Source of the DNA: Magnetococcales bacterium
GTDB taxonomy: Bacteria; Pseudomonadota; Alphaproteobacteria; UBA2136
Direction of reading: 5' to 3'
NCBI GenBank assembly: GCA_002689455.1
Contig: NZGE01000033.1
Location: 16,926 to 80,925, forward strand
Length of the DNA: 64,000 bases
A model generated the notes under the pieces. It had not been told where the DNA came from, ran no database searches, and saw only the letters and a list, made by a program, of their open reading frames with translations. A program made the position numbers and the translations under genes. The stretch's first letter is position 1. Every line of letters starts with the position of its first letter. Positions 1,711 to 24,347 of the stretch are shown piece after piece.

Positions 1711-2427
1711 TTATTTAATTAAGAGCTCCAGCCAAAGCCTTGAATGTTCAGGCAAAATGCCATTTTCTTTTTCAAAACCTTCAACCCACATGTCGCCTGA
1801 TATAATTTTGGATTCACCTAGTTTTATCGTTTCCTCACCTGTCATCACCCTTGTGTAACGCACAGGCTTTTGGTGTACATATGTTTGATCTTCTTGGTAA
1901 TAGGCCATAAAGTCTTGCATACGTATATTTTGAATAGTGGCCGACACCGTGGCTTTAATGAAACCTTGAATAACCTTAGAAAGGCTTAGAACAAGTTTAT
2001 CTTCCACCATCATACTTTGGCGGTTCATTTTAGGTTTAACCTTAAACAAACCTTTTTCAACATAAACTTCCGGTTCATGAACAAGGTATGGAATTTCAAC
2101 ATCCTTTGAAATGCTTTTATCTTCACCTGCAAGCATGGAAATGCCATCAGCCATCAACACATGTGCAACACCTTCTCCACATGCCTTATGTTGAACAAGG
2201 TCTGAGGAACGCTCTAAGACCTTTTCGGCTATTTCTTTACTGGTAAAGCATTCAATTAATTTGTAAGAAATTAAAACCATCTCAGAGCCTTTAGGGCGCG
2301 GTTTAAAGTCTTTTGGTGTACCAATTTCTGTGATCGACCACACAGGGAAAATAACACACAAGAAAAAAAGGCTACAAACTGCAGCCTTTAAAACGTATTT
2401 ATGAAAATTACATAATAACTTGTTCAC
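1711..2427 (-). CDS. Hypothetical signal-peptide protein, last gene of the traB-traC block (possible TraW/TraU-class F-type periplasmic component)
   Basis: 238 aa with an N-terminal hydrophobic signal-like segment (AVCSLFFLCVIFPVWS). Its start overlaps the upstream gene by 20 nt. Assignment is by position only. Confidence 0.3.
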   Translation of the reverse strand: MNKLLCNFHKYVLKAAVCSLFFLCVIFPVWSITEIGTPKDFKPRPKGSEMVLISYKLIECFTSKEIAEKVLERSSDLVQHKACGEGVAHVLMADGISMLAGEDKSISKDVEIPYLVHEPEVYVEKGLFKVKPKMNRQSMMVEDKLVLSLSKVIQGFIKATVSATIQNIRMQDFMAYYQEDQTYVHQKPVRYTRVMTGEETIKLGESKIISGDMWVEGFEKENGILPEHSRLWLELLIK

Positions 2428-3298
2428 GTTCTGGTGCGATCTTTTTCAGCATAGACGTAAAGGTACGAACCTTACGTGGGTCTTGGTTATCAATTGGTGT
2501 GTGAATGACAATACGGTCGTCGGTGATAGATGCAATACGGCATGACTGCCAAGCATTGTTCACAAAGTGACGAATTTCATTTGTACGCATTTCTTCTTCT
2601 GTTTCACCTTCACCTTCTGGTAACAAGGTAATACGGCGCACGCCTAAAATAGTTTGTAAGTGACGCACATTAACACCACCATTTTCAAGCCACATAGACA
2701 TGTGCTCTGAAGTCATACGAATAACAGCCCAAGAGTTTGATGCACCCATCCAAATACCTGAAATACATTCTGGGTAGTAACACTCCATCACAGCGGCAAC
2801 AAATTCTTTACCACGACGTGTACCAACACGCATGCCCGCAACAGCGTCACGGCTTGCACAAAGTGTTAAAACTTGTTTTGTGCCTAAAGGTGGCTTCTCG
2901 TGAAAGTCCATCACACTGAGTAAATTCTCTGGAATAAAGACGTGTTTTGTACCCACACGGTAGAAAATACCACCGTCACGGTAACCGGCAACCTCACCTT
3001 CAAGCACACGGCCTGGTGCACCGTCACCCCATTGATGAATTTCCATAATTTGCATAAACATGTTCACACTTGGCATGAGTGGATCACGAATATCAATCCA
3101 CACACCACGGTCACCAAAGCCATTACGGCGGCGTGTTGCAATGGTTTGGTCTTCTAAGTTCACATCCACTTCCACCAACATGTCTTTTTCGGCATAACAA
3201 AGGCGAATAGCACTGGCAAGCGCTTGTTCGATTTGCGCTTCTGTCCAACCATATTCTTCGCCAATCAGGCGTACTGTTTCAATATTTGCGACTCTCAT
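2408..3298 (-). CDS. Hypothetical protein in the tra operon
   Basis: 296-aa intact ORF, apparently translationally coupled to the 608-aa gene upstream and the 238-aa gene downstream. No signal peptide or recognisable motif. Confidence 0.3.
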   Translation of the reverse strand: MRVANIETVRLIGEEYGWTEAQIEQALASAIRLCYAEKDMLVEVDVNLEDQTIATRRRNGFGDRGVWIDIRDPLMPSVNMFMQIMEIHQWGDGAPGRVLEGEVAGYRDGGIFYRVGTKHVFIPENLLSVMDFHEKPPLGTKQVLTLCASRDAVAGMRVGTRRGKEFVAAVMECYYPECISGIWMGASNSWAVIRMTSEHMSMWLENGGVNVRHLQTILGVRRITLLPEGEGETEEEMRTNEIRHFVNNAWQSCRIASITDDRIVIHTPIDNQDPRKVRTFTSMLKKIAPEREQVIM

Positions 3299-3300
3299 AT

Positions 3301-5127
3301 TTAGCGCCCTATACTTACAATGTGTTTTCGTTTGCCGTTGGTAAATTCGGCATATTCCTGTTTAACAGTGAGAAGCTCCCAACCCGATACACTTTCGCCG
3401 ATGAGTAGAACCCCTTGCTTGCTGTTTAATTCAGCTATAATACCTTTTTTAGGAACTGTTGACAGTAAAATCAAGGGTGGGAAGTTTGTTGCACGGAAAC
3501 TTGGGCGAATATTTTTAGGAATACGCACACGTTCACGTTCAACTTGGAACATGGCAACATCAAAGTCATCTAATGTTCTTACACCGTTGTTTTCTTGGTA
3601 TGAAGGCTCTGGCACAACAGGTAAGTTATATGGGTTTGCACCATATAATGATTCAGCTTGCTTTTGTGAAAGCAATGCGCTTTTACGTTCTGGCAATGGA
3701 ATAGATCCAGCGTCTGCATTTGCACTTTCTTTTTCTGCAAAATATTCATCAGGTGTAGGTTTGTAACCTGGTTCAACTGTGTTGGTTTCCCCTGCTAAAA
3801 TTTTACGATATTCAGCCAACTCATCTTCCAATTGGCGGGAAAGTTCCTTGTTTCGCTCATCCAGTTCTGCTGGTGAAAGCATTTCCACATCATCTTCTTT
3901 TGCAACAACTTCTTCTTGAACTTCCGCAGGTTTAAAGTTTTCAGGGTTCTTTTCTTTACGTGCTTGTTCAATGGCTTGTTGTAGCTGAACAATCACACCC
4001 ACCTCTTCTGGCATATCAGGTGCACCTTCAGCGTCTATGGGCTTTTCAACCTCTTCTTCTGGTACATCCACAAACTCAACAATTGTATTATTTGAATCTT
4101 CGTTTGTAGCAACCTGTTCATCTTCAATTACTGTTTCAGGCGCAATCTCATCTTCCATAGGTTGAGGTTCTTCAGAAACCATTAAGTCACCCATTTCTGA
4201 ATCTTCTACAGGCGTTTCTGCAGGTTCAGGTCTATTCACTGGAATTTCTTCCTTGCTCATACTCGCCATATCCACAACAGCTTCAGGCTGCAATGATGGT
4301 GTTGCACCATTGTCTTGTGATTTTTCACCTACAGTTGGAATTTCTTCTGAAACTTCATTTAAAGAACCTGTCCAACGGCTAATCACTTCGGTTGTTTCAT
4401 CTTTTTCAACAAAGAATGAATACCCCGCAAATCCAATTGCACATAAAATCACAATACCAAATAAAGCACCTGCTGGCTTTGCATTGTCGTGCGTTACAAG
4501 GGCAGCAGCGCCGCGACCTGCAATTTGTGCAGGGCTTAATTTTTCATCATCTTTGAAGGTTGTTCCTTCTGGTAATTCTGGTGCTTCTGCACCAACTGCA
4601 CCTTGTTGCCATGGTGGCAATGAGTCATTTTGAGGTGCCTGTGGTTGGTCCATCAATGGCTCTTGCGGCAAAGACTGTTCCTTTTGAACTTGCTCTTGTG
4701 CCATAGACCCGAAAATATCTTCTTCAGCATTTTTAGATGTATTCATATCATCTAAATCCCAACCTCCAGCCACTTCAGGCTCCTCAGCCCAAGCGTCAAT
4801 AGTTGGTTCAGCTGTTGCATCTAATTTTGAAGCTGTTGGCTCAATTGCAAAATCGTCTTCAGGTAAATGCCTTTGTTGGAATGCATTTTCATCAGAAAGT
4901 TTACTGCTTTGTTCTGGAATTGCAGAAGCTGAGCTATCTACAGTTGATTCAGGTGCAAGCGGTGGACGCTTTGCAGGAATTTCATCTGCAAACTCATCAA
5001 AAGAAACTTTTTTCGACTCTTTAGGCGTAGCTGATTCCTTAGGCGCAACAGAAGATGCACCTGAGGTGTTCTCTTTTTGTTCTGTTTCTTTGGCCATGGC
5101 CGATGGTAATTTACGCTTTAATACCAT
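3301..5127 (-). CDS. Bitopic membrane protein with a long acidic, Pro/Glu-rich disordered N-terminal half (TrbI-position protein)
   Basis: 608 aa. The N-terminal roughly 200 aa is low complexity (E/D/P/A-rich). There is a single transmembrane segment (ALFGIVILCAIGFAGYSFFV) and a C-terminal globular part. It lies immediately downstream of traC, where F-like systems have trbI. Confidence 0.4.
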   Translation of the reverse strand: MVLKRKLPSAMAKETEQKENTSGASSVAPKESATPKESKKVSFDEFADEIPAKRPPLAPESTVDSSASAIPEQSSKLSDENAFQQRHLPEDDFAIEPTASKLDATAEPTIDAWAEEPEVAGGWDLDDMNTSKNAEEDIFGSMAQEQVQKEQSLPQEPLMDQPQAPQNDSLPPWQQGAVGAEAPELPEGTTFKDDEKLSPAQIAGRGAAALVTHDNAKPAGALFGIVILCAIGFAGYSFFVEKDETTEVISRWTGSLNEVSEEIPTVGEKSQDNGATPSLQPEAVVDMASMSKEEIPVNRPEPAETPVEDSEMGDLMVSEEPQPMEDEIAPETVIEDEQVATNEDSNNTIVEFVDVPEEEVEKPIDAEGAPDMPEEVGVIVQLQQAIEQARKEKNPENFKPAEVQEEVVAKEDDVEMLSPAELDERNKELSRQLEDELAEYRKILAGETNTVEPGYKPTPDEYFAEKESANADAGSIPLPERKSALLSQKQAESLYGANPYNLPVVPEPSYQENNGVRTLDDFDVAMFQVERERVRIPKNIRPSFRATNFPPLILLSTVPKKGIIAELNSKQGVLLIGESVSGWELLTVKQEYAEFTNGKRKHIVSIGR

Positions 5128-5134
5128 TTAACCC

Positions 5135-7747
5135 CTACTTTGTCCTACGACTTCGTTCTTCTTCAGCGGCAGCCGCTGCACGTGCTGCACGTACCCCTTG
5201 AGGATACTTTTGACTGAAAGCTACTGTCGCCTTCCACCAGTCTCCGCCCATTTCATCTTTCATGCGGGTAATTTCGGAAACATCATCTGGCTGAGTTGAC
5301 GCTAATGCAAATGTTAGCTTATCTGTCAGCAAACGGCAAACAACTTCTCCAGCAGGAGACATTAAATAAAACTCGGAATAGAAGCCAGGCTTAGTGTCGA
5401 GTGAAGCAATGTTTGCTTCATGTCGTTCACTGCGTAAACCAAGCGACTGCATCAACATTGGAATCATCTCTTTTCTTGGTTTCAAAATCATACGTTTCGT
5501 AATGTTACCAATGATTGCCTGACCCACATCTGTTGTTAAATCTTCCTCGTTTTGAGATGCAATTCCACACATACAGTTCAATGAACGGTAGGTTCGGAAC
5601 GCACGTTTTAACTGGTTCGAAATTTGGCCACCGCCTTTAGAACTAATCATCGAAATCATCTCATCGACAAGAAGGTGTTTTTTGGCTGCTCTGTCACCCA
5701 TATACATCACATTGTCTAGCATCGTGAAAATTGAGTTGATAATAACATCACTAATTTTTTCACTGAGGACGTTTTGTAAGTTGAAGACAACAAGTCTATC
5801 TTTTTCACTAATGGATGGTGGACCATCAAATAATTTACCATAAATACCTTCGCTACAATATGAACCCAATTCATCGGCTGCAAAGAAACCAAGGTTACGC
5901 TGATGTTCATTAATGTATGGGAATTTTTGCATTGCTTCACGAATCCATGTTGGGCGTAAAACATCCCCTTCTGGTACAAGATCGTAAGCATATTGCAGAA
6001 CCTGCTCAAACAAACGTGGCATAACAGGGTCTAGTTCTTCTGAACCACCCTTTTTAATCATCAGCTCAAGAGCTTCCACCCATTGCTGTAAACGCTGTTT
6101 CGTCATCATACCTGCAAACGGGTTAATGCATGAAGAAGGTGAATCTAAATCAATTAAAATAAGACGACCCATTGTACGCGCAAAACGGTCATAGTCATCT
6201 TTAATAGTCATCAAGAATTGACGGTGTACACCCGCAGCAAATAACTGTAACACAAGGTCAACAACCGCAAATGATTTACCAGAACCTGATGTCCCTGTAA
6301 TAGCATAGTGCCAGTTTACAAAGTCACTGGATGTATGGTCAAAGAAAGTTACCTCACCGTCACGGTTCACATAAACAGCTTGCGGTGATTTACTACCACC
6401 CCAATGTCCGTGGTTTGGTAAAAGGTCAACCAAGTCATCACTCATCACACGGCGGTTACGTGAAAACGGTTTACTAAATTCAAATTTATTAACAAGCGGC
6501 CAAGAAAACGACATACCTTGCAAGGCCATACTACGTTCCATATCAGGCACGGCTGAAAGTTTTTTTATCGCCGAAGATACTTTAAGCATTTTATCTTCCA
6601 CTTCTTTACGAGAATAACCATGAATAATCATACCCATTGTCATGTAAAGAATTTTACGGCCTGCGAACATGCGGTGCTTAATTTCACTAACCTCTTGTGC
6701 AAAGGCATCGGCTTCCTCTTTATTAAAAGCGCCAGAAACACGTTTTCGAAGCTCCACAGAGATGGCCATTTTAGTCTGTTCCATCATTTGATGTGGCTGA
6801 ATAATGTTACAGAAGAATGTATATTGCGTTGCAATTGTTCTTCTTATAATACCAAAATAATCAGGTGCAACCGTGTCTGGCATCATGGCCAAAGTTACAA
6901 TACCGTGGTAATCACGCCCTACTTTAACCAAGTCAAACTCATGTTCTATTGGCAATGGGAAGCATTGGTCGTTAAAAGGTGTCTTTTCATCTAATACAAT
7001 ACGTTGACCTGCTTCGCGATATGATGGTGCAAAAGCCGTCCAGTAATGTTGCTTCAACTCCGTCAACGACATACGTGTTTCACGCACAACCCCAAACATA
7101 ACGTCCAGTGTAGATTCAATAGATAAAACAGTTTCTTTAAAATCTGAGAGAGCTACGCGCACTTGGGAATTAAAGAAATCATCAAAAAACTTGAACTTTG
7201 ATGGGTCCATATTAAAGGCTGACATAGCCGTTCCAACAACAGTATAAATCAGGTTCATAGCTGTTTTAAGGATTCCCAAATCCTCTGCAGGTGGCGGTGC
7301 CTTTAAGGTAATAATCATATAAGTATCACGCAGCATAGCATACTGACCTTCAGCAACAGGGTAACCATTAAAACCAGCCGTTAACAGCTTTTCAGCACGT
7401 GATTCACGCAGTAATTTTCCTTTTTCATCTCCACTATCCAAACTGAGATAATCAGTCATACGCTGGCCTAAATTGTTATGGGATGTGATAATTGTTTGAA
7501 CTTCATATCCAACAGGTAAACTTTCAATAAAAGTTCTAAATTCATTGTTGGTTTGCAAGTAACCGCTGTCAGAAGAATAAGATGGTGGCACACGCGTTTT
7601 CCACGCAATAGCCAAACTGCCATCATCTAATAAATGTGTGCGCCAATAAGGTGAGCTTTCATCTTTCTCAAACTCAAAATATGGCAAAAACTGCCCAATT
7701 CTATTGGCACGTTGCTGTGCTGGTTTTTCGTTACTGAGAAACGCCAT
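5135..7747 (-). CDS. traC: F-type T4SS ATPase TraC (VirB4 family)
   Basis: 870 aa. Walker A GTSGSGKSF and Walker B LLVDE. Size and position after the lipoprotein TraV match F TraC (about 875 aa). Confidence 0.85.
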   Translation of the reverse strand: MAFLSNEKPAQQRANRIGQFLPYFEFEKDESSPYWRTHLLDDGSLAIAWKTRVPPSYSSDSGYLQTNNEFRTFIESLPVGYEVQTIITSHNNLGQRMTDYLSLDSGDEKGKLLRESRAEKLLTAGFNGYPVAEGQYAMLRDTYMIITLKAPPPAEDLGILKTAMNLIYTVVGTAMSAFNMDPSKFKFFDDFFNSQVRVALSDFKETVLSIESTLDVMFGVVRETRMSLTELKQHYWTAFAPSYREAGQRIVLDEKTPFNDQCFPLPIEHEFDLVKVGRDYHGIVTLAMMPDTVAPDYFGIIRRTIATQYTFFCNIIQPHQMMEQTKMAISVELRKRVSGAFNKEEADAFAQEVSEIKHRMFAGRKILYMTMGMIIHGYSRKEVEDKMLKVSSAIKKLSAVPDMERSMALQGMSFSWPLVNKFEFSKPFSRNRRVMSDDLVDLLPNHGHWGGSKSPQAVYVNRDGEVTFFDHTSSDFVNWHYAITGTSGSGKSFAVVDLVLQLFAAGVHRQFLMTIKDDYDRFARTMGRLILIDLDSPSSCINPFAGMMTKQRLQQWVEALELMIKKGGSEELDPVMPRLFEQVLQYAYDLVPEGDVLRPTWIREAMQKFPYINEHQRNLGFFAADELGSYCSEGIYGKLFDGPPSISEKDRLVVFNLQNVLSEKISDVIINSIFTMLDNVMYMGDRAAKKHLLVDEMISMISSKGGGQISNQLKRAFRTYRSLNCMCGIASQNEEDLTTDVGQAIIGNITKRMILKPRKEMIPMLMQSLGLRSERHEANIASLDTKPGFYSEFYLMSPAGEVVCRLLTDKLTFALASTQPDDVSEITRMKDEMGGDWWKATVAFSQKYPQGVRAARAAAAAEEERSRRTK

Positions 7748-8135
7748 ATCCTACCCCAAATGCATCTTCATCAATACTACGATCATTGGCCGGTAATACC
7801 CATTCATATCGATCTGTTAGGAAGATTGTTGACCAATTACCAAAAACACGTGTGTTGTCTTGTGTTACATGAGGATATGTCCACACAAGTAGTGTTTTAG
7901 GCGGTGCTACAACTGCCAACTCTTTTTCTGGAATATAAGAAGGACGGTTCATTTCAGGACGCACTTTGTGACGAATAAGCTGTCTTTCAACACCGCCCGC
8001 ACCTAAAGACTTATCCTTCGCAACATCGTAAGAAACATCCATCGAAAGAGGATAATCAGGTGGCAATGCGCTCCCATAATACTTACATCCTGTTAAAGCC
8101 AGCAACATAAGAAGCATGATTTTCATTTTATTCAT
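7731..8135 (-). CDS. traV: TraV-like outer-membrane lipoprotein (VirB7 analogue)
   Basis: 134 aa with a lipobox (LALTGC). It sits between the traB and traC homologues, as in F. It overlaps traC by 17 nt. Confidence 0.45.
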   Translation of the reverse strand: MNKMKIMLLMLLALTGCKYYGSALPPDYPLSMDVSYDVAKDKSLGAGGVERQLIRHKVRPEMNRPSYIPEKELAVVAPPKTLLVWTYPHVTQDNTRVFGNWSTIFLTDRYEWVLPANDRSIDEDAFGVGYGVSQ

Positions 8136-8151: not shown

Positions 8152-9603
8152 TTAAATTCTACCTTTTTTAGCATTTTCTTCAGCCTTAAGGCGAGCTGCT
8201 TCATTTTCAGCTTCAATTTTATCTGCTTTTTCACCATCAACCAAAAGCGTCCAAGGGCTTCCATCATGACGCAATTCAAACCCACTTAACAGTACCATAT
8301 GAATATCCCTTGTTGGATCCACACGAACAAATGGAACAACACGGTTTGAACGCTCCTCAAGATAATCCCTTAATGATCCCATCATCCCCGAAATACCTGC
8401 TGCCATTTCAGCTTGAACCGCACTACCAGTTAAGTTTGTTGCCGTCCCACCTTCACTGGTTGTCTCTGAAAACTGATTTTCACGCACAATTTCAGCTGTT
8501 CCCGCCGCAAAATCAGCCAATAAAGCCGCTGCAATACGTGAAGCATCACCTTCATAAAACACACCTGGCACACCAACAATGCCATCATTTGCATCAACCA
8601 CATAACCACTTAAGCTATATGTTACAGCACCTGCATCTGGATAAACACATGTCATACGACTTGGTTTACCAATGGCACGCTCTGTAGAAATTTGCCCTTC
8701 AAACTCAACAAATGCAATACAACCATCTAAAGAAACTGTAGAGTTCATCGCTGTTTTATAACTACCCGTCAAACGCACCAACGCTGGTACAGAACCACCT
8801 ACAAGCGCATCAAAACCGTTTAACAAAGTCCCTTTAACAAACCCTAAAGGCGGCACAAAAGGTTGAGGTGTTTTTTCTACGTAACGACCGCCACTTGCTG
8901 ATTGAAGCACCTTTGAACCTGGTGCACTATTAAAATTTAGCAATGCTTGGTCGGGGTTTGCACTCATCCCCGAACTCCCTGCTCGCAGCGTTGTTTGGCT
9001 GATACGTGCCTTTTTCTTTTGGCGAACAACTGTTTTCTCATCCATACCACCCAGTGCTTGCTGGCGACGACCTTGCTCTTCAACAGCACGTGCTTGATCC
9101 ACAAGCCTGTTGATTTCTGCACGTTGCTCTTGGTTTGACCTTTCAAATGTACGTATTTGTTGATTAAATGTTTCGATCATCTGTTGCATTTGTTGCTGCT
9201 GTTCAGTAACCGCATCCTTAATAGAAGATACATTTTCAAGTTCTGTTTTTACATTATCCACTAAAGAACTTTTAAGCTCAGCAAGTTCTTTACGTTGCTG
9301 TGTATAGAAACCTCTTTGTAAAGACTCCCTCGAAGGATCTACAGCCTCAAACGAGCCTTGACCCCCTTCTACATCTTTTTGCAATTGCCTTTGTGAAACC
9401 TTCACATTCCCTTCAGCAGGTTGCTGGGCAGCAGGTTTCTTGACAGGAGTTTCACCCCCACCTGAGACCAACATAAATAAGAAGAAGACAACAACAGCCC
9501 CAATACCTATTTGAGCATTTTTAGGCAGCGCCTTAAACTTTTCAATAAGTTCCTTTAACTTATCTTCCCCGGACGAAACTGGTACTTGATTATTATTTTC
9601 CAT
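8152..9603 (-). CDS. traB: F-type T4SS TraB (VirB10/TrbI family)
   Basis: 483 aa. N-terminal transmembrane segment (IGIGAVVVFFLFMLV), a Gln-rich coiled-coil linker, and a C-terminal beta-rich VirB10-like domain. F TraB is 475 aa. Confidence 0.7.
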   Translation of the reverse strand: MENNNQVPVSSGEDKLKELIEKFKALPKNAQIGIGAVVVFFLFMLVSGGGETPVKKPAAQQPAEGNVKVSQRQLQKDVEGGQGSFEAVDPSRESLQRGFYTQQRKELAELKSSLVDNVKTELENVSSIKDAVTEQQQQMQQMIETFNQQIRTFERSNQEQRAEINRLVDQARAVEEQGRRQQALGGMDEKTVVRQKKKARISQTTLRAGSSGMSANPDQALLNFNSAPGSKVLQSASGGRYVEKTPQPFVPPLGFVKGTLLNGFDALVGGSVPALVRLTGSYKTAMNSTVSLDGCIAFVEFEGQISTERAIGKPSRMTCVYPDAGAVTYSLSGYVVDANDGIVGVPGVFYEGDASRIAAALLADFAAGTAEIVRENQFSETTSEGGTATNLTGSAVQAEMAAGISGMMGSLRDYLEERSNRVVPFVRVDPTRDIHMVLLSGFELRHDGSPWTLLVDGEKADKIEAENEAARLKAEENAKKGRI

Positions 9604-16235: not shown

Positions 16236-17984
16236 TCAGTTAGACCCTCTAGAGTTGTATAGTTTAGATATCATTTGTGCATAATCTTTTTGTTGTAGTC
16301 TCTTTCTTTCGAAACTATCCAACTTACGCTTATATGAACCAATCAAAGTATCTAGAGCACCTCTAACATATTGAGGTGGCGCATTGCGATCAGTTGACAC
16401 AATGGCACTTAAATCTAGCTGTGCAAGCTCTAGTCTATGGATTAAAAAACTTAAAATATTATGTGTTACCGCATAAGCCACTTGCGTTCTATAGCCAAGT
16501 AAAACAGCATCCGCAGACCCGCTATCAGCATCATCTGTTAACGCAATATATTCAGCCAGTGTTAGCCTAAGGTCATTTCGCAATGAACATTTAACGCCAT
16601 ACTCAACAACATTTCTAAAGTTAGGGATCACAATATTATTCACATTGGAATCACTATTATCAGAATGCCCTGCTCCAAAATCAACATGCAAGTTATCACC
16701 ATAGATTGTCCCTGCATTTAGAGGAGGTGGAAGAAATGGTGCTGTTGTTGTAATATCGTATGCAGCAACCATAGGTGTGAAATTTTCCCACTCAACTATT
16801 CCTGAACCATCAACTGGTGCAGAGCAATTAACATAATTTCTATATGCATCCTCTAAAAATGGAGGATCAATTAAAACACCAGGACCATCATCAACACCTA
16901 AGTCTGTAGATGCAGCCATAACATCATCATAATCAGCGATGGTTTCAACATGGCCACCATCAACGTTTTCACCATCAATTGCAATTTGATAAGCAAGATT
17001 CCTATCCGTTGCTTTCACCAATGCCTTTGCAAAACCTTGAGCGTAATTTGTAAAACCTTCTGAAAGACCGAAAGCGAGATCAAAAATTTGAATAGGCGAA
17101 ATAGATTCAGGCGATACCCTCACCTCACTAGAGGCTACAATAGCTGAATCTAAAGATGCAGACTCACTTCCGTCCGCGCAATTTGTGTAACTTGCCGTGC
17201 TAGAGTTTGTACACCAGCGAATATTTGGCAACAATGCTAGAAGTGTGCAATCACGCCCTGTTGTGGTTTGAATACAAGCACTTGTATTTTGCAACGCAGA
17301 ATATAGCGTCCCATTCCATTTTGGAGAATCCAGAACCTGCTCAGTGGCCTCATACAAACTTTTATTTAATGTTTCACCTGTTTGTTCAGTGTAATCAGGA
17401 GATGACAAACAGAACTTAAAAGCTTGCGCTGTTACATCAGGCCCAGTTGAACCTTCTTGCTCCATATATGATTGAATGCAATTTTGAACTGCCTGCCACT
17501 GAGCTGGCGCCAGCTCATCTTTATATTCCATAGCGGCACACCTGTCCTGCAGTTCACGCACACGTGAGCCTGCAAAATTTTCTAAACCATTAAAAATCTG
17601 AGCAACGGCTGGTGAATTAAACAAAGTGGTAACCATATAATTAGAAACAGATGTGTTAAAATATTCATTAAGCGTTGAATCGTCTGTATTTAGAATAGTT
17701 TTACGGGCTTCATGAGTGTCTAATGCCCCACAACCAAGCGTACCCAACACTCTTTCATCACTCAAAGTAACGCCTGAAGCTGATAAATCATTTGTTCGGT
17801 TTGAAGTAATCGGTCTTTTATGTGTCGGTACAAACCCAACACTTCCCGCATTATTTAACCTTAATTCTGGGTTGGTCTCTACTGCATTTGAAAGGTGTGA
17901 AAAACCCATTAAAGTGCAAAAAACACCTGTTAAAACAAGAACTTTGCTTTTAATCATAAACTTCACCTCTTCGTTTGCAAACAC
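16236..17984 (-). CDS. Cys-rich secreted protein, possible TraN/TraH/TraU-class F-type outer-membrane/periplasmic component
   Basis: 582 aa. The likely signal peptide starts at the internal Met (MIKSKVLVLTGVFCTLMGFSHLSNA). About 11 Cys are spread through the mature part. Confidence 0.3.
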   Translation of the reverse strand: MFANEEVKFMIKSKVLVLTGVFCTLMGFSHLSNAVETNPELRLNNAGSVGFVPTHKRPITSNRTNDLSASGVTLSDERVLGTLGCGALDTHEARKTILNTDDSTLNEYFNTSVSNYMVTTLFNSPAVAQIFNGLENFAGSRVRELQDRCAAMEYKDELAPAQWQAVQNCIQSYMEQEGSTGPDVTAQAFKFCLSSPDYTEQTGETLNKSLYEATEQVLDSPKWNGTLYSALQNTSACIQTTTGRDCTLLALLPNIRWCTNSSTASYTNCADGSESASLDSAIVASSEVRVSPESISPIQIFDLAFGLSEGFTNYAQGFAKALVKATDRNLAYQIAIDGENVDGGHVETIADYDDVMAASTDLGVDDGPGVLIDPPFLEDAYRNYVNCSAPVDGSGIVEWENFTPMVAAYDITTTAPFLPPPLNAGTIYGDNLHVDFGAGHSDNSDSNVNNIVIPNFRNVVEYGVKCSLRNDLRLTLAEYIALTDDADSGSADAVLLGYRTQVAYAVTHNILSFLIHRLELAQLDLSAIVSTDRNAPPQYVRGALDTLIGSYKRKLDSFERKRLQQKDYAQMISKLYNSRGSN

Positions 17985-18054
17985 ACTTTAAATTAATTAT
18001 AGTGCTGAAAACCCTTTGTTTCAAGGTTGTTTTAATAAATAAACAACATTAAAG

Positions 18055-20205
18055 TTAAGTGTTTTTAGCGTTTGAACGTGCTCTGACCACTTCATCTTTT
18101 GGTGTTTGGTTATAAACTTCCACACGCAGTGCATTTAAATTCTTATCCGCTAAGTCTACAAGCATCGCCACTTCAATAGATTGTTTACGGCGTAATTTCA
18201 AACGGCGAAGGTCTTTTAAGGCATATTCTAATGCGTGAGCTGCACCTGTTAAGCGCTCATTTAAAGCATAAAAGGCTTTAAGCTCCTTCAATTCATCTTC
18301 AATCACTTTCGGGCTACCAAAACGCATCAATTCTGCTGCTTCAAGTTCCTTCTTCAAGGCATCAATTTCACTTGTTGCGGCATCTAGTTCTTCTTTTTGG
18401 TTGGCAATCACCGACTCACGGCGCTGTGTCCAAATTTCAGAATCTTTTAAATCACGTTCGTAGTCTTCAATACGTTTTTTCAAAGCTTGAACCACACGGG
18501 CGCTTGAAGCGTCCACAACAGCCGATTGCATTGCCGTTGTCACTACAGGCTCTACATCTTTGTTTGGTGCATGTTTTGCAACAAATGCATCAATTTTATC
18601 TTCGACAGCTGCTTGGTGCAGGTCATTAAACTTACTGCCCTTCGACCATGCAATGCCCGCACGGCGGATAAAGTCTGCCATTTTAATTTGAACAGGCTCG
18701 GACAAGTCTGCACAAGTGCTTGCATTGGTTACCTGAATAAGACCATCTTCAAACAATGCACGTAACTTAGGACAAGCCTTATCTTTAACCTTTGCATAAA
18801 CCAAAACGTTTGTACGGCTTGTGCCTACACAGTCAGCAATTTTTTGCTGTGACAAACCTATATCAGAAAGTGCTGATATAGCGTAATACAAATCAATTTT
18901 TGATGGTTTAAGCGTACGCATATTAATGGCAACACGTAAAATTTTAGCATCTGTTTCAGATGGGATTTTGTGAACAATACACATATAGTCACTTCGTCCC
19001 TGCTCTTTCGCAAGTTCTAGACGACGCTCACCATCAATAATAAAGCCTTCTTCATTAATAAGCGCTGGATATTGCCCATCATCGAACTCGTGTGAAGCAG
19101 CATATGTGTTAAATTGATCTTCCGATTCAGGCGAATGAAAATCGAAGTTCTCAAAAGGAATTAAACTGTCGATTGAACGCAATTCAACGCCTTGAAGTGG
19201 ATATTTTTTAACTTCTTCACTTGTAAACACATCCTGATATACAGGCGACTTTGCTTTTGCTTGCGCTTTTGGCTTTTGCAACTTTTTAGTTTCAGACTTC
19301 GCAGAAACCTCTAAAGCAATCGTTTCATAATCCTTTTCAATGGTTGGGTAAGCTTCTTTAAAGGTGTCAACCACATGGCTTGCCTTTTCAACTGCAATGT
19401 TTTTCAAAGCTTTCAAGACAAGCCTATTCACACGTTTTTCATTAAACTTTAAACGTTCAAAATCACGTGAAACAGAAACATGGTCACCATCAATAATACG
19501 TTGTACATAAAAAGCATCCATAAGCTCATTCATCACCTGTGAAGCACGGGAGTCTGTCACACCGAAGTGGTAAGCGATTTCTTGGAAATTATAAACACCG
19601 CCTACTTTAACATGTAACAAGGCTGCTTTTTTCTTTTCATCCGTTTCTTTAGCAACAAGGTCATTTAATACACGTTCAAAGAAACTATCACGCATAATTT
19701 TCAAAGCAATTTCTCCTTTATTTTCATCACGCGCTTGCGATGCTTCACCTGCAAGCATTTCCTGCATTGGGCTTTCATGGTCAAGGTGCTGAACAAGCAA
19801 TGGCGGGTCTGAACGAAAACGTTCCTTTTCATCATCGCCTAATTTTTCTGTAAAGGCTTGGCGGGCTTTATACTCGGGGTTGCCGTTGCGAATTTCCATA
19901 GCGCAGCTTTCCATGCGGCTACCAAAAAATGTTGTAAATAATACAGAAACAATTGAGCCATCTGCTTTTTCGTAAACAGGGCTATAGTCACGTAAGCATT
20001 TTAATAATACTTCGTAACCTTCTTGGAAAAGCTCTTCAACATCTAGGTGGTAATAACGTGCAATTTTAGCAACAGCTTGACGGCGAGAATCAAGGAAACC
20101 TACAGCATCTTCTAGTGCCTGCTTATACCCCTCATCTTCCAATTTCATGGCATCCAACTTTTTCTGCGTTGGCATTTTTGTCAGTTTTTCTTTTTTAGAA
20201 ACCAC
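18055..20205 (-). CDS. Sigma-70 (region 2 + region 4)-like N-terminal domain fused to a ParB/Spo0J-like domain, with a coiled-coil C-terminus
   Basis: aa about 60-100, LFQEGYEVLLKCLRDYSP...FTTFFGSRMESCAMEI, resembles sigma70 region 2 (DLIQEGNIGLMKAVEKFDP...FSTYATWWIRQAI). FQEIAYHFGVTDSRASQVMNELM resembles the region 4 HTH. aa about 330-470 has the ParB N-terminal motif (FIIDGERR) and a helix-turn-helix (QQKIADCVGTSRTNV). 716 aa. Confidence 0.5.
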   Translation of the reverse strand: MVSKKEKLTKMPTQKKLDAMKLEDEGYKQALEDAVGFLDSRRQAVAKIARYYHLDVEELFQEGYEVLLKCLRDYSPVYEKADGSIVSVLFTTFFGSRMESCAMEIRNGNPEYKARQAFTEKLGDDEKERFRSDPPLLVQHLDHESPMQEMLAGEASQARDENKGEIALKIMRDSFFERVLNDLVAKETDEKKKAALLHVKVGGVYNFQEIAYHFGVTDSRASQVMNELMDAFYVQRIIDGDHVSVSRDFERLKFNEKRVNRLVLKALKNIAVEKASHVVDTFKEAYPTIEKDYETIALEVSAKSETKKLQKPKAQAKAKSPVYQDVFTSEEVKKYPLQGVELRSIDSLIPFENFDFHSPESEDQFNTYAASHEFDDGQYPALINEEGFIIDGERRLELAKEQGRSDYMCIVHKIPSETDAKILRVAINMRTLKPSKIDLYYAISALSDIGLSQQKIADCVGTSRTNVLVYAKVKDKACPKLRALFEDGLIQVTNASTCADLSEPVQIKMADFIRRAGIAWSKGSKFNDLHQAAVEDKIDAFVAKHAPNKDVEPVVTTAMQSAVVDASSARVVQALKKRIEDYERDLKDSEIWTQRRESVIANQKEELDAATSEIDALKKELEAAELMRFGSPKVIEDELKELKAFYALNERLTGAAHALEYALKDLRRLKLRRKQSIEVAMLVDLADKNLNALRVEVYNQTPKDEVVRARSNAKNT

Positions 20206-20341
20206 AAGTTCACCCTTTTGATTTACTCAACTTTTCATAGAATTCAACGTATATATTCTAAACACTTCTAAATATTATGCGAGAAAAATAGTAACTTATC
20301 AATGAATCCCAAATAAAGAGTGTCAGAAATTTGCAACTGAA

Positions 20342-22060
20342 TTACTTAAAGGCTTTTTGTAGAATTTGAACATAACGGCTTGGTTTGTCATACCACGAAA
20401 TTGACAAACTTCCTGAAGCACGTGTGATGCCCATATAAAATAAACGTCTATCATGGCTTTCATCTACTGGTAACACACGGTAGCCCGCAAAAGGGTAAAC
20501 CTTTTCATTTGCAAGCGGCATAAACACAGCGTCAAATTCCAAATTACGCATATCACGCACAGGACCTAACAAGATACGGTCCAGCATGTTCGGTTCCTTG
20601 CCCTGTCTAATTTGTGGTAAAACCTCTTTTAAAGGCCCTTTAAGATTTAAAAGGGTATCTACAGCAATTAAGGCGTTAAACTTATCTTCATAATTCATAC
20701 GCTCAATCATATCAAAAGAAGCAGCCTTAAAAACCTCCTGCGCAGATGATGACCTGTTTTTGAGCAAGCAATAATAACCCAGCAACTGCCTTTGTATAGC
20801 AATAAAGTCCCCAAGGGCTGAACTTGGAAGCTGTAAGTCTTTTGGCAACTTTGCCCCATCTGCTAGCCAATTATGTGCATGCAAACCACCTTTAAACAAC
20901 ATTTCAATAAGCTGTTGATTTAAACCATAGCCAACCAACACATTCCGCAAATGAACATCGGACGCTTGATTCATTAATAAGCACAACAGGTCAATAACCA
21001 TAATTGCACCTGGTATTTCCCAAATCTTATGTGCAAAGCTTGAATGTTCAATACCATTTTTTTCAAATATTTTTTGAATTCGTAAAGCGTCCCAATCGGT
21101 TCTTGCAATCACACCTATGCGTTTATCAGAAGGAATAGCTTTAATTTTCTCTGCCAATATAAGAAGCTCTTCCTCTGCCGAGCTGTAAGCATCAAAAGAT
21201 ACTTCAATATTTTTTTTCGGGTTAAAATAAACCTCTTTTTCAAACCGGTCAGGTACTTTGCCTACAACCGTTAAAGCTGTTTGACCAAGCTTTTCAGATA
21301 ATCTGAAACATTTTGTGAGGGTAAAAGCTTTAACCCCTTGCTGTTCTTTAAAGTCCTTTAAAGCGGCTGAACCTAAAGCACCGTCGCGCTTAAAAACACA
21401 CAGGTCATCATCTCCAAAAGCAGAAACTTGCGCACCTGCTTTCATATGCTCTAGCAACCACAAGAACTGAATATGTGTAATATCTTGGAAATTATCCACA
21501 AACACGTAACGCATTGGCACTAATTTCATTTCACCTTGACGCATACCTACGATATGCCTTCTTAACACATCGTAACGGTCCATTTCGCAGTAACCTTTGT
21601 ATGCCATAAAAAGGTCGAAATGTTTTGCAGTTTCTGCTGGTTTACGTGCCATACTTTTAAAGTTACGTACAATGTGTTCAGCTTCAACTGCACTGCCTTT
21701 AAAGTCCACTTCACGCATGGCTTGCCTTAAAGAGCGACGCGCCTGCTTATCTGTTGCGAATACAAGCTCGGTCTCAACATCTTTTTCCATTTGATTTTGA
21801 GCAAATATACGGCAGGGTCCAATGTTAATTTGTTCAGCAACTTCTAATCCCAAGCGACCTTTCAATTTATGAAAAAGTATTTGCCAAGAATAATATGTGA
21901 AGGCAATTAAATAAATTTCTTGAGGGTTCACACCCGATTCAATTAAATGAGCAATACGTTCAACAAGTGTATATGTTTTTCCTGTTCCAGGTGCACCAAA
22001 AACAAGGCAAGAACCTTGGTACTTTGTAATATTTAACTGTGTTTTAGACATATCTCCCAT
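20342..22060 (-). CDS. UvrD/Rep-family superfamily-1 DNA helicase (short form)
   Basis: 572 aa. N-terminal Walker A FGAPGTGKTYT and a motif II-like VFVDNFQDIT (DExx box). Confidence 0.6.
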   Translation of the reverse strand: MGDMSKTQLNITKYQGSCLVFGAPGTGKTYTLVERIAHLIESGVNPQEIYLIAFTYYSWQILFHKLKGRLGLEVAEQINIGPCRIFAQNQMEKDVETELVFATDKQARRSLRQAMREVDFKGSAVEAEHIVRNFKSMARKPAETAKHFDLFMAYKGYCEMDRYDVLRRHIVGMRQGEMKLVPMRYVFVDNFQDITHIQFLWLLEHMKAGAQVSAFGDDDLCVFKRDGALGSAALKDFKEQQGVKAFTLTKCFRLSEKLGQTALTVVGKVPDRFEKEVYFNPKKNIEVSFDAYSSAEEELLILAEKIKAIPSDKRIGVIARTDWDALRIQKIFEKNGIEHSSFAHKIWEIPGAIMVIDLLCLLMNQASDVHLRNVLVGYGLNQQLIEMLFKGGLHAHNWLADGAKLPKDLQLPSSALGDFIAIQRQLLGYYCLLKNRSSSAQEVFKAASFDMIERMNYEDKFNALIAVDTLLNLKGPLKEVLPQIRQGKEPNMLDRILLGPVRDMRNLEFDAVFMPLANEKVYPFAGYRVLPVDESHDRRLFYMGITRASGSLSISWYDKPSRYVQILQKAFK

Positions 22061-22152
22061 GCATACAGTTTAATTTAAATTGTGTGCAAAACCAAGAATC
22101 ATTCCCTTAGAGGCTTTATTCAAGCTGACCCTGCGTCTATTCTATGCAACAA

Positions 22153-22179
22153 GAAAAAAAGCCCTTTAAGGGCTTTTCA
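22153..22179 (-). terminator. Rho-independent terminator after traK
   Basis: Hairpin aaagccc-ttta-agggcttt, followed on the minus strand by a T-run. Confidence 0.55.
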
Positions 22180-22199
22180 TGAATTAACATACGTTTTGA

Positions 22200-22919
22200 T
22201 TAACGTTCAAACAATAAGAACATAACACCTTGATCAGAAGGCTTACCCTTGCCTGCAAGACGCATGTTTTCCATAGCAGCCTTACGCAACACACCCCACT
22301 CACCTGTTTTAGGAATGGAAATAGCAGGGATGTTAACCTCATTCGCTGTTGGGTATTCATTTTGAACATGAACCACTAAGCCTGTATACTTAGGTGACTG
22401 CCAAACTTCTGAAAGTTCGAATGTTAAACCTGCACCTGTAAACCAGTTCGGCACCACATATGTTTCGCGAATAACGCCAGGAACATCACGGTCTTCAGCC
22501 ATAGCACGAATCATATCATTCACATTAAACTGCGCTGCGATTTGGCGTTTTTTAGAATCGATTTTTTGGCCATCCACAATTTCAACAAACTGACGGTATG
22601 GAACATCTGTTGTAAGAACAACAATGTATGTTGTACCCGAAGCACCTGTCATAAACATTCTGGTTGCCATTTTAGGAAGTAATGAACGCATACGGAAAGC
22701 CTTATTCCCATAACCTTCAACAACCAAAATATCAACATAGTCACTGTTTTCAAGTGTAATGTTAACAATTTCCTCAGGGAATTCAACGTGAGAAATATCA
22801 TCCTCATTCAAACCAAGTGTGAGTGTATGTGTTGGGCCACGCCAAACAATTGTATCTGCAAATGATTGACCAGCAAGCACCGTCATCATCATCAAAAAAC
22901 CAAGTACAATTTTTTTCAC
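22200..22919 (-). CDS. traK: F-type T4SS TraK (VirB9-like) periplasmic protein
   Basis: The ORF-track N-terminal extension overlaps traE and is rejected. The probable start is GTG at 22919, giving about 239 aa (F TraK is 242 aa) with a signal peptide KKIVLGFLMMMTVLAGQSFA. Position after traE is canonical. Confidence 0.55.
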   Translation of the reverse strand: MKKIVLGFLMMMTVLAGQSFADTIVWRGPTHTLTLGLNEDDISHVEFPEEIVNITLENSDYVDILVVEGYGNKAFRMRSLLPKMATRMFMTGASGTTYIVVLTTDVPYRQFVEIVDGQKIDSKKRQIAAQFNVNDMIRAMAEDRDVPGVIRETYVVPNWFTGAGLTFELSEVWQSPKYTGLVVHVQNEYPTANEVNIPAISIPKTGEWGVLRKAAMENMRLAGKGKPSDQGVMFLLFER

Positions 22920-22944
22920 TTTTATATTACCTTTTACTAATATA

Positions 22945-23580
22945 CTAACGTAGTTTGCCTGTAAGCTCTGTTTCGTTGTATGAAACAAGTTCAAAACCAA
23001 AAGGGTTTGATTTTGAAATATAGCGTTGTTTAAATTCCATTTTATAACGCATCGGAATAGCTTCCACAACTGTACCTGCAATAATATACTGCCTTGTACC
23101 TTCAATGGTTACAGTTTGTGTTTTACCGCGACCACTAGGCCCCGTATCACCTTCAATTTTAAAAGCTGTTTGATCTGGAATAAATTTTGATGAGCGTTCA
23201 TCCTGAAAAGCTTTTTGAATAAGGTCCTTGAAGTAGCTTTGCGCAACCGCCAACATATCATCATTGAAAAACTGTTGAATTTCACGGTATTGATTTTCAA
23301 GGTTCTGATATGTATAGTTATTCAAACTATTTACAATTAAGTAAGAAAGCTCTTTAAGCATAATTTCAGAGTTAGCAGGTGTGTAAAACCCAGCAACGCT
23401 TCCAGGAACGACATAAACCTGAGCTTGCGCACGCAATTTTTCATATTGTGCATTTAAACGTCTGTTTTCTGAAATAACTTGATACGTCCAAAAGAAAACG
23501 ATAATCAATAACATTAATAAAACACCAGCGATACGCTGCCATTTATCAACCACACTTCCTGCTCTTGCTATAAAATCCAT
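22945..23580 (-). CDS. traE: F-type T4SS TraE (VirB8-like bitopic inner-membrane protein)
   Basis: 211 aa with a single N-terminal transmembrane segment (IAGVLLMLLIIVFFWTY). Lies between traL and traK. Confidence 0.6.
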   Translation of the reverse strand: MDFIARAGSVVDKWQRIAGVLLMLLIIVFFWTYQVISENRRLNAQYEKLRAQAQVYVVPGSVAGFYTPANSEIMLKELSYLIVNSLNNYTYQNLENQYREIQQFFNDDMLAVAQSYFKDLIQKAFQDERSSKFIPDQTAFKIEGDTGPSGRGKTQTVTIEGTRQYIIAGTVVEAIPMRYKMEFKQRYISKSNPFGFELVSYNETELTGKLR

Positions 23581-23600
23581 TATTCTTTCTTCTAAAAACT

Positions 23601-23864
23601 CTAAAGTTCAAACCAAGGTGCTTTTTTAGGATTCGGTAAAAACTTACCAATTGGTGCCACTTTGTACCATAATCTAAAAAATGTACCTTCGGGTTTGTTG
23701 GCTGTAATTTTATTAATAATATACACACCGCCAAGCCCAGCTGCCCAAGCCATTATAACACTTTGAAACATAAACATCACGCCATAGTGCCCTATTAAAA
23801 AGACGATAATAATTTCCGCCATACGGTTTGGTCTATCAATATTTCTTGGTACAGGTCTCATCAT
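23601..23864 (-). CDS. traL: F-type T4SS TraL (VirB3-like)
   Basis: 87 aa, two hydrophobic segments, immediately downstream of the pilin gene. F TraL is 91 aa. Confidence 0.55.
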   Translation of the reverse strand: MMRPVPRNIDRPNRMAEIIIVFLIGHYGVMFMFQSVIMAWAAGLGGVYIINKITANKPEGTFFRLWYKVAPIGKFLPNPKKAPWFEL

Positions 23865-23969
23865 AATAAAATCACTCTAACATATAATGCAATTAACCAG
23901 CAAAAACAATATTCCATAAAAAAGATAACATAAAAAGACAGCATGTTTATTTGTGATATTTTTACATAA

Positions 23970-23995
23970 AAAAGACCCGCTAAAAGCGGGCCTTT
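23970..23995 (-). terminator. Hairpin terminator/attenuator immediately after traA
   Basis: The minus-strand reading gives ggcccgc-tttta-gcgggtc followed by TTTTTT. Confidence 0.55.
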
Positions 23996-24011
23996 TATTA
24001 ACCTATTATAT

Positions 24012-24347
24012 TTATAGGACTTCAGTAGATGCTGTTGCATTACCGTCTGTTGCATCAGCAAAACCAGAACGCATCCATTCGAAGATACCTGGGAAAGCTG
24101 TTACAGCTACACCACCAATCATCACCATGATACCCCAAGATGATTGTTGGATAAGCCACATGTACAGACCAAATAGTGCAATACCTAAACCGATAAGCGT
24201 ACCTAAACTACCTGAAACCATGCCAAGCACACTTGCAAGTAAATCACCACCTGCAGCTGTAGCATCCTGCGCCATTGCCGCTTCCGGTGCCATTGTTAGA
24301 ACTACTGCTAAAACAGCAAAGCTCATAAAAGTTAGAAATTTTTTCAT
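24012..24347 (-). CDS. traA: F-type propilin TraA
   Basis: 111 aa. The leader ends ...APEAAMA. The mature N-terminus QDATAAGGDLLASVLG parallels F-pilin AGSSGQDLMASG, followed by two hydrophobic helices. Confidence 0.7.
   Translation of the reverse strand: MKKFLTFMSFAVLAVVLTMAPEAAMAQDATAAGGDLLASVLGMVSGSLGTLIGLGIALFGLYMWLIQQSSWGIMVMIGGVAVTAFPGIFEWMRSGFADATDGNATASTEVL

Follow-up and report, generated by a model that had tools for sequence, protein, structure and literature searches.

The 64,000-nucleotide stretch of a Magnetococcales bacterium contig analysed here (NCBI GenBank assembly GCA_002689455.1, contig NZGE01000033.1, positions 16,926 to 80,925; hereafter the window) carries a gene cluster for a type IV secretion system (T4SS) related to that of the F plasmid, in which traA-L-E-K and traB-V-C are separated by 12.6 kb of other genes. 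We consider it probable, at roughly 70%, that these 12.6 kb are a resident and co-inherited part of a deeply divergent clade of F-like T4SSs, which has a gene order of its own and resides in the chromosomes of aquatic Pseudomonadota. The reading is carried by the recurrence of the same genes, in the same place, in every relative of the cluster that shows the region between traK and traB. An original prediction made from the window alone had described an F-type operon split by non-canonical genes; its description of a non-canonical layout stands, but the conservation of the block in relatives shows that the layout is not an interruption.

The gene order is conserved among uncultured relatives

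We scanned for TraC with one genome per GTDB species and mapped the window proteins onto the loci found, which are referred to by L numbers in the following. The scan yielded 30 loci, all of them from uncultured metagenome-assembled genomes (MAGs) of marine and freshwater origin labelled as Alphaproteobacteria, Proteobacteria, 'Magnetococcales' or 'Pseudomonadales', with TraC identities of 59-90% and many contigs of 0.2-1 Mb. About 20 loci share the order helicase - sigma::ParB fusion - Cys-rich protein - (TraG-like) - p634 - traB - traV - traC - p608 - p296, with protein identities of 30-65%, and the block that lies between traK and traB of the window is found at this position in L028, L044 and L046. 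In L028 and L046 a single strand carries the pilin gene(s), traL, traE, traK, a gene of ~250 aa, the helicase, sigma::ParB and Cys-rich protein genes and, further on, traB. The distant relative L042 likewise bears on one strand a lytic-transglycosylase-like (SLT) gene, followed by the helicase, sigma::ParB, Cys-rich protein, TraG-like, p634, traB-V-C, p608, p296, p238-like and PhoH genes and then by an AI-2E transporter gene, as is also found in the left flank of the window. Since the identical order is repeated on many independent contigs, the arrangement is not an assembly artefact, and since the same helicase-to-p634 block lies between traK and traB in the relatives, it represents the normal architecture of the clade. 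The standard chromosomal order is pilin-traL-E-K / (lytic-transglycosylase-like)-helicase-sigma::ParB-TraH-like-(TraG-like)-p634 / traB-V-C-p608-NusA-like.

Together, the window and the loci L001-L003 and L044 make up a marine subclade, set apart from the remaining loci in three respects: the TraG-like gene and p634 are inverted as a unit, a second pilin gene is present, and the ~250-aa gene after traK is missing. Marine relatives whose Cys-rich protein is 51% identical show the inverted layout too, and the borders of the inversion in the window show no inverted repeats. In freshwater relatives, the ~250-aa gene is situated between traK and the helicase gene (L028 1186-1923, L046 3032-3817, L024 335-1102, L008 9581-10297), a place that is occupied by a terminator in the window. 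The SLT-like gene of L042, which has a weak Pfam match, lies just upstream of the helicase gene. Freshwater L046 also has two pilin genes, in tandem at 365-721 and 737-1066.

Comparison of the window with L001 reveals that the periplasmic and surface parts of the system diverge far faster than its motor and cytoplasmic parts: the TraG-like protein (42% identity), the TraH-like Cys-rich protein (46%) and the second pilin (56%) stand against TraC (90%), TraV (92%) and p296 (96%). This fast divergence fits parts that contact partner cells. Over dozens of species the genes are intact and keep their length, with identities of 46-92% for TraV, 59-90% for TraC and 57-96% for p296.

Six annotated plasmid tra regions were searched with family profiles built on the MAG loci. 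The 305-kb plasmid pOS401 of Comamonadaceae bacterium OS-4 (AP026971; L033) proved to be the closest relative that the plasmid collection contains. Its genes follow as virB1, pilin, traL-E-K-B-V-C, two unknowns, a TraF-like, a TraH-like and a TraG-like gene, the type IV coupling protein and a helicase, so that the core is contiguous; T2SSE-type pilus ATPases are encoded upstream of the T4SS. The TraH-like protein of pOS401 is the homolog of our Cys-rich protein (2.5e-11), and the protein following it has a weak TraG_N match. Four unknowns of the plasmid (L033:21731-25332) gave nothing in single-sequence hhalign comparisons with Tra families. The region 15112-31165 of pOS401 looks like a complete T4SS relative with coupling protein and helicase; nearly the whole plasmid is annotated as hypothetical and is typed as 'non-mobilizable', MOB-suite having found no relaxase in it.

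The core genes resemble those of F-type systems

The gene map of the window was derived from the list of open reading frames (ORFs) and their translations and is summarized in Table 1. Support from hidden Markov models (HMMs) is weak to moderate for the core genes, all of whose matches fall under the curated or gathering cut-offs.

Table 1. Features of the T4SS cluster and its surroundings, with coordinates in the 64-kb window and the evidence for each assignment (model or comparison, followed by its E-value or score).
Feature	Coordinates	Strand	Evidence
PhoH-like ATPase	609..1499	-	PF02562 9e-49
p238, secreted, clade-restricted	1711..2427	-	six orthologs
p296, NusA-fold paralog (NTD-S1-KH1-KH2) by model	2408..3298	-	AlphaFold2 (AF2) pLDDT 88.8 and Foldseek
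p608, bitopic: acidic disordered region, one transmembrane segment, conserved C-terminal domain	3301..5127	-	23 orthologs
traC (VirB4 ATPase, closest to F-type)	5135..7747	-	TIGR02746 5e-53; PF11130 N-domain 9e-6
traV, lipoprotein	7731..8135	-	lipobox; hhalign vs TraV 89.6% over 115 columns
traB (VirB10-like)	8152..9603	-	NF010289 2e-14; PF03743 9e-9; PDB 7SPB (pED208 TraB) and 7OKN TraB 5e-10
TraG-like candidate, polytopic membrane protein, 1248 aa	9925..13671	+	topology and position; weak profile signal
p634, cytoplasmic, 634 aa	13700..15604	+	conserved family; AF2 pLDDT 92, pTM 0.92
second pilin gene, C-terminal extension of ~90 aa	15607..16233	-	aligns with the pilin at 24012-24347; tblastn/jackhmmer cross-matches; TraA profile 0.039
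Cys-rich protein (probably TraH-like), secreted, 582 aa, 11 Cys	16236..17984	-	hhalign vs TraH and position
sigma-70-like::ParB fusion, 716 aa, C-terminal coiled coil	18055..20205	-	TIGR02937 2e-5; TIGR00180 2.6e-4
UvrD/PcrA-type SF1 helicase	20342..22060	-	PF00580 2e-18; PF13361 3e-12
hairpin, intrinsic-terminator-like, 10-bp stem and T-run	22178-22156	-	directly after traK stop
traK candidate, secreted, ~239 aa	22200..22919	-	position and orthology to pOS401 gene
traE	22945..23580	-	PF05309 8.5e-5; pOS401 ortholog 1.5e-8
traL (VirB3-like)	23601..23864	-	PF07178 5e-4; custom TraL profile 2e-3; hhalign vs TraL 62%; pOS401 ortholog
pilin (TraA/VirB2-like)	24012..24347	-	PF04956 1.5e-4; custom TraA profile 9e-9; signal peptide and two transmembrane segments
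type IVb pilus cluster: prepilin peptidase N-domain, prepilins, T2SSF, T2SSE ATPase, secretin, TcpQ-like	28186..41684	-	
type IV coupling protein (TraD/VirD4-like)	45940..47361	-	TIGR03743 1e-21; PF12696 6e-9; pOS401 ortholog 5e-54
thioredoxin-fold TraF/TrbB-like	47689..48747	-	PF13462 5e-7; PF13728 TraF 2.5e-4; TIGR02738 TrbB 2e-4; below cut-offs

TraC, which shares 20-25% identity with plasmid TraC proteins (tblastn), finds its best model in the F-type TIGR02746, ahead of the VirB4, PFL_4706 and TrbE models. An assignment to type G mating-pair formation (MPF_G) was rejected, as TIGR03744 (PFL_4706 TraC) reached 5e-17 compared with 5e-53 for the F-type model, and TIGR03752 reached 4e-4 compared with 2e-14 for F TraB; the other families of the TIGR0374x-0376x set for integrative conjugative elements (ICEs) had no match in the window. 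TraV was recognised solely through profile-profile comparison. For traK the listed ORF extends to 23105, and we take the GTG at 22919 as the likely start because the signal peptide begins there; in L028, L046 and pOS401, orthologs of traK occupy the place next after traE, and the pOS401 protein matches PF23536 (TraK_C) at 0.011. Among the features of type F mating-pair formation (MPF_F), a TraC-type ATPase, TraL, TraE and a TraA-type pilin are hence present with scores below the cut-offs, while the outer-membrane core is represented by TraB through HMM and PDB matches, by TraV through hhalign and by a TraK candidate through its position and orthology to the pOS401 gene. Judged from these similarities, the system would be an F-like T4SS variant in which several features of MPF_F membership are not found, and the functions discussed below are putative throughout.

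The stretch between the stop of traK (22200) and the start of traB (9603) agrees with the 12.6 kb of the original prediction, as do the terminator-like hairpin behind traK and the genes that it listed between traK and traB, namely a helicase, a sigma::ParB fusion, a Cys-rich protein, a pilin-like protein and, on the plus strand, a TraG-like gene and a gene for 634 aa. The TraG-like gene and traB are separated by a divergent intergenic region of 321 bp (9604-9924). A second, GC-rich hairpin with T-runs on both sides (23976-23990) separates the pilin gene from traL and may be a partial terminator that raises the pilin transcript above those of the downstream genes. A k-mer search of the upstream regions found no promoter motif in common.

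The genes between traK and traB belong to the clade

A homolog of the helicase adjoins the coupling protein in pOS401 (1e-40), and in related loci the helicase gene lies upstream of sigma::ParB. Because the same helicase is part of the pOS401 system, we regard it as a component of the T4SS clade and not as cargo. In the fusion protein, to which a ParB N-domain and a helix-turn-helix are assigned, the family profile matched the Spo0J/ParB structures 1VZ0 and 6SDK (5e-6) over residues 375-484, so that a ParB-like part is reasonably supported by these similarities. Residues 40-229 match the extracytoplasmic function (ECF) sigma model TIGR02937 (2e-5), and fusion homologs gave matches to Sigma70_r4 (7/10) and r2 (2/10). 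The matches of both parts are sub-threshold, and the sigma part is a tentative assignment.

To compare the Cys-rich protein and other families with known Tra proteins, we used reference alignments from F, IncC, Dyella, Campylobacter, Vibrio and P. luteola plasmids together with the MAG family alignments. The 37-sequence profile of the Cys-rich protein aligned with 11 TraH sequences at 75.5% probability in hhalign (E 2.4e-5, 76 N-terminal columns) and with 4 TraH sequences at 54%, whereas all other Tra families and control queries stayed at or below 3%. The aligned stretch is the motif GCGG(ID)...P...C, found at equal distance from the signal peptide. TraF-TraH-TraG is the order in 7/7 diverse TraH-bearing plasmids checked, and the Cys-rich gene stands immediately before the TraG-like gene in MAG loci and immediately after the TraF-like gene in pOS401. 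Because of the profile-profile match and the conserved position, we consider the Cys-rich protein to be probably a TraH homolog. Pfam scans of 15 and of 37 members of its family gave neither TraH nor any other informative family, and a word-indexed homolog search with its profile returned 12 close matches.

The 1248-aa protein, in which two N-terminal transmembrane segments are followed by a large loop and a four-segment cluster, reached 4-32% in hhalign against TraG and 31.5% against the pOS401 protein that weakly matches TraG_N. Its gene follows the TraH-like gene in relatives, and a TraG-like identity is weakly suggested. It is adjacent to and co-oriented with p634 in relatives, and the two are inverted together in the window; they are genetically coupled and behave as a detachable two-gene module. 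On a 1.36-Mb contig whose main cluster (L046) has p634 and no TraG-like gene, a second pair, encoding a TraG-like protein of 1766 aa and a p634 paralog of 735 aa, is located ~880 kb away (L045 4672-12208). The p634 family comprises 201 clusters, 0 of them with a Pfam domain. Its confident model, when compared with the PDB and BFVD, gave no fold match besides a GrpE-like helix/β subdomain; since nothing beyond this subdomain was matched, p634 appears to be neither a relaxase fold nor a periplasmic Tra protein. The idea of a cryptic relaxase was accordingly dropped, the model matching no HUH, relaxase or HD fold.

A NusA-like protein is encoded downstream of traC

The genes downstream of traC are shared by the clade to different degrees. 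In its 23 orthologs p608 always follows immediately after traC; it has no Tra-family or PDB match. The most conserved protein of the cluster, above TraC, is p296, which is found in 105 clusters at 57-96% identity with a rigid length of 296-297 aa. Over its full length the predicted structure matches NusA of E. coli, B. subtilis, T. maritima, M. tuberculosis and Planctomyces in Foldseek (E 6e-13 to 1e-7), while no sequence-level similarity to NusA was detected in Pfam, NCBIfam and profile searches. The model thus places p296 in the NusA fold, and it may function as a NusA; our literature search did not bring up any NusA paralog described for a T4SS cluster. For p238 no relative outside the clade was detectable. 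No PDB match emerged from sequence-profile searches with p296, p608, p634 and the Cys-rich and TraG-like families.

The PhoH-like gene closes the cluster in the window and in L001-3, L005, L026, L028 and L042. Its product shares 28% identity with that of L001, compared with 90% for TraC. A phage origin of the cluster, as PhoH might suggest, was rejected since the flanks consist of housekeeping genes.

These results also bear on the four ORFs that the original prediction had proposed as divergent versions of missing F genes. The proposal fits the Cys-rich protein, which is probably TraH-like; p296 instead adopts a NusA fold in its model, p634 is cytoplasmic with an unmatched fold, and p238 matches no Tra family. 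In hhalign, p238, p608 and p634 scored <1% against TraW, TraU, TrbC and TraN, with nothing for any Tra family.

The cluster has a chromosomal setting

The coupling protein and the TraF/TrbB-like gene are situated ~22 kb from the tra genes, beyond the type IVb pilus cluster. The TraF/TrbB-like protein matches our custom TraF profile at 0.01 and the TraF-like ortholog of pOS401 at 1.5e-9. The view that TraF cannot be recognised therefore holds for the region that the original prediction covered, outside of which this candidate lies, and its own matches remain below the cut-offs. For ordinary HMMs, the traW/traU/trbC/traN/traF/traH set is indeed not confidently recognisable, and the HMM searches gave no clear hits that would turn the intervening genes into canonical F genes in a known alternative order.

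For the prepilin peptidase ORF (157 aa) of the pilus cluster the match is confined to the N-terminal A24_N domain, and several ORFs of this cluster have no family match. Between this cluster and the pilin gene, at 24515-28119 on the minus strand, two adjacent genes encode coiled-coil lipoproteins of 572 and 628 aa, which are conserved in L044 and have similar C-terminal domains (…GDWNVEWRL… and …GDWDVKWKL…). The pilus/T4SS region of pOS401 opens with a homolog (L033:5-1315, 7e-9) of a 461-aa plus-strand ORF without family match (41782-43167).

From 49 kb on the window consists of housekeeping genes (a CDF transporter, glutathione reductase (gor), peroxiredoxin, rph, rdgB, hemW, holA, lptE and leuS), and on the left side contigs with an identical PhoH run on into RND efflux, SURF1, murJ and mutS genes. 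The window shows no GC shift, tRNA or integrase, and a look for transposase, integrase and flanking repeats in the 12.6-kb block was negative. A megablast search of positions 1-24500 against plasmids gave no match. The gene set of roughly 48 kb is chromosomal and apparently long-resident. The sequence derives from marine (TARA) metagenomes, and every T4SS protein that we looked up is annotated in GenBank as 'hypothetical protein [Magnetococcales bacterium]'. Our literature searches on the lineage (UBA2136, Micavibrio) yielded nothing relevant.

Weighing of the evidence

Several observations speak against a resident F-like system, or against single identities within it. No ORF of the 64-kb window matched TraW, TraU, TrbC or TraN in Pfam, NCBIfam or custom HMMs, the custom profiles giving nothing below E = 0.09. 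The window TraK has no significant similarity to F TraK, and the identities of TraK and TraG are suggested by position, topology and chains of weak similarity. The similarity of the Cys-rich protein to TraH is limited to ~76 columns, 0/37 members of its family match the Pfam TraH model, and 47 members were retrieved when 1.84 billion representatives were searched exhaustively by HMM. Support for the sigma-like region is confined to sub-threshold matches. The argument for vertical inheritance draws on neighbours shared by a few loci and not on a phylogeny, and L046 ends in other neighbours (glycosyltransferases). With regard to DNA transfer in particular, the window revealed no recognisable relaxase, oriT or integrase, and none of the unknown ORFs at 28-48 kb was found to be a relaxase; of the features of a self-transmissible element, the coupling protein is present, and relaxase, integrase and tRNA were not found in the 64 kb.

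The lack of a relaxase leads to the alternative that survives best, namely a chromosomally fixed T4SS that does not serve conjugation but the contact-independent release of DNA, as in the gonococcal genetic island (GGI), or the delivery of effectors to prey or host. The absence of an integrase in the window and the typing of pOS401 as non-mobilizable agree with it, as do the location of the island between housekeeping genes with host-like GC and neighbours in common with the distant L042. The very fast evolution of periplasmic and surface parts is what would be expected of parts meeting a partner cell, and the gonococcal F-like T4SS needs ParA and ParB, together with a relaxase, for secretion of single-stranded DNA (PMC8716806, PMC4207684). 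No effector-like genes were identified in the window, however, and because a coupling protein, a UvrD-type helicase and a ParB-like domain are present, a DNA substrate is suggested. This would suit DNA release, but also conjugation if a relaxase were encoded elsewhere or were unrecognisable. We regard this alternative as unlikely, though it deserves to be taken seriously.

According to a second alternative, the window would harbour canonical F-type genes in the known four-cluster layout of SXT/R391, IncA/C, IncHI R27 and ICEAfe1, split by unrelated DNA. Split MPF_F systems do exist, as in IncC, a P. luteola plasmid and Dyella p1, and the adjacency of the TraH-like and TraG-like genes mirrors their traF-traH-traG cluster. 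The known four-cluster systems nevertheless keep traL-E-K-B-V contiguous and their F-specific proteins pass the HMMs, whereas here the break falls between traK and traB, and TraW, TraU, TrbC and TraN are undetectable in the window. Moreover, sigma::ParB, p634, p608 and the NusA-like protein have no counterpart in the plasmid loci examined, and the helicase has one in pOS401 alone. A known four-cluster layout is thus quite improbable.

It is highly improbable that the 12.6 kb are a foreign insertion, be it cargo or a mobile element, that splits a canonical traA-L-E-K-B-V-C operon. The terminator directly after traK, the two opposite-strand genes and the contiguous traL-E-K-B-V-C of pOS401 would be compatible with an insertion, but the same block is found at traK/traB in the three relatives and precedes traB in ~20 loci, its GC is uniform, it lacks transposase, integrase and flanking repeats, and its helicase and Cys-rich protein also belong to the pOS401 system. 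Equally remote is a decaying F-like remnant with degenerating ORFs, which the HMM scores far under the family cut-offs and the absence of several F-specific genes might suggest, but which is contradicted by intact, length-conserved genes over dozens of species and by confident AF2 models of p634 and p296.

A possible mode of action

If the 12.6-kb block is a resident part of the clade, the system might operate as follows. TraA, TraL, TraE, TraK, TraB, TraV and TraC would, going by their homology, form an envelope-spanning channel and a pilus, with the TraH-like, TraG-like and TraF/TrbB-like proteins serving pilus assembly and mating-pair functions. The coupling protein, helicase and ParB-like domain would handle the DNA substrate. 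More speculatively, the sigma-like domain and the NusA paralog could provide dedicated transcription of four units, across the terminators after the pilin gene and traK. The marine subclade would have inverted the pair of TraG-like gene and p634, which may now have a divergent promoter region of its own at 9604-9924.

A bolder version is that the clade represents a new functional class of T4SS, a lineage-wide, vertically inherited and non-conjugative machine for the translocation of DNA or effectors. It would have arisen from an F-like T4SS by shedding TraW, TraU, TrbC, TraN and the relaxase and by gaining the sigma::ParB protein, the NusA paralog, the helicase and p634 as a partner of the TraG-like protein. 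This possibility is attractive but, in our estimation, rather doubtful.

F-type systems are the classic machines of conjugation, and the set and order of their genes serve as signatures in the classification of mobile elements. The F-like core of this clade departs from that signature: traK and traB are separated, four 'F-specific' assembly proteins are undetectable, there is no recognisable relaxase and the genes are chromosomal. Current tools miss such systems, as seen in the 'hypothetical' annotations and in the typing of pOS401. Among the parts that are new in the clade are a NusA paralog and a putative sigma::ParB fusion within a secretion cluster, as well as p634, with a confident fold and no structural relative.

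Comparison with known systems

With the F plasmid and other MPF_F systems, including the TraV-TraK-TraB core of pED208 and F, the window shares the pilin, TraL, TraE, TraB, TraV and TraC in the same relative order, TraC and TraB scoring best on F-type models; it also has a TraF/TrbB-like protein of thioredoxin fold and probably a TraH. Unlike in F, traK and traB are far apart, TraW, TraU, TrbC and TraN are undetectable and the location is chromosomal. TraI/MOB_F relaxase, TraM, TraY and TraJ were not found in the window, which adds the helicase, sigma::ParB, p634, p608, the NusA-like protein and a type IVb pilus.

The MPF_F systems that are split, in SXT/R391, IncA/C, IncHI1 R27 and ICEAfe1 and associated with MOB_H, likewise distribute their tra genes over several transcription units with other genes in between. 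In ICEAfe1, SXT, R391 and R27 the tra genes form four clusters (PMC6370655). They resemble the window further in a DsbC/thioredoxin helper and in a TraD-like coupling protein of SXT type (TIGR03743), and their (SLT)-...-TraH-TraG block would correspond to the TraH-like and TraG-like candidates here. They differ from it in that traL-E-K-B-V stay together, the F-specific genes are recognisable and the intervening DNA is variable cargo, whereas here it consists of conserved genes. In IncC, for example, a 5.4-kb DUF4165 gene stands between traLEKBVA and dsbC-traC, in the P. luteola plasmid traLEKBVA and traC are separated by ~5 kb including an Abi gene, and in Dyella p1 traFHG is apart from traLEKBVAC.

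Like the present cluster, the GGI encodes an F-like T4SS on the chromosome, and its partitioning-type proteins, ParA and ParB, work together with the DNA-processing machinery (PMC8716806, PMC4207684). In contrast to the window, it has a near-canonical tra order, the full F-specific set and the MOB_H relaxase TraI (PMC6736028), and its ParB has no sigma-like domain fused to it.

Type IVb pilus genes beside a conjugation-type T4SS, which in the window encode a secretin, T2SSE, T2SSF, prepilins, a prepilin peptidase and lipoproteins, are also known from the thin pilus of IncI1 (R64) and from the type IVb pili of ICEs; the partner T4SS there is of type MPF_I or MPF_G and not F-like, and no PilV shufflon was seen in the window.

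The plasmid pOS401 differs from the window in being plasmid-borne with a contiguous core and a downstream helicase, and in having no homolog of sigma::ParB, p634, p608 or p296. It shares with the window traL, E, K, B, V and C, the TraH-like, TraF-like and TraG_N-like proteins, the coupling protein, the UvrD-type helicase, the T2SSE ATPases and a homolog of the 461-aa ORF.

Finally, p296 has the architecture of NusA, with an N-terminal domain (NTD) followed by S1, KH1 and KH2, but is shorter, lacks the C-terminal AR domains and is without sequence-level similarity to NusA. The F tra operon requires RfaH, and a NusA-like protein encoded in the present cluster would parallel the logic of RfaH, one of the NusG paralogs that serve long operons, and of ActX, in that a long secretion operon would carry a specialised elongation-factor paralog of its own.

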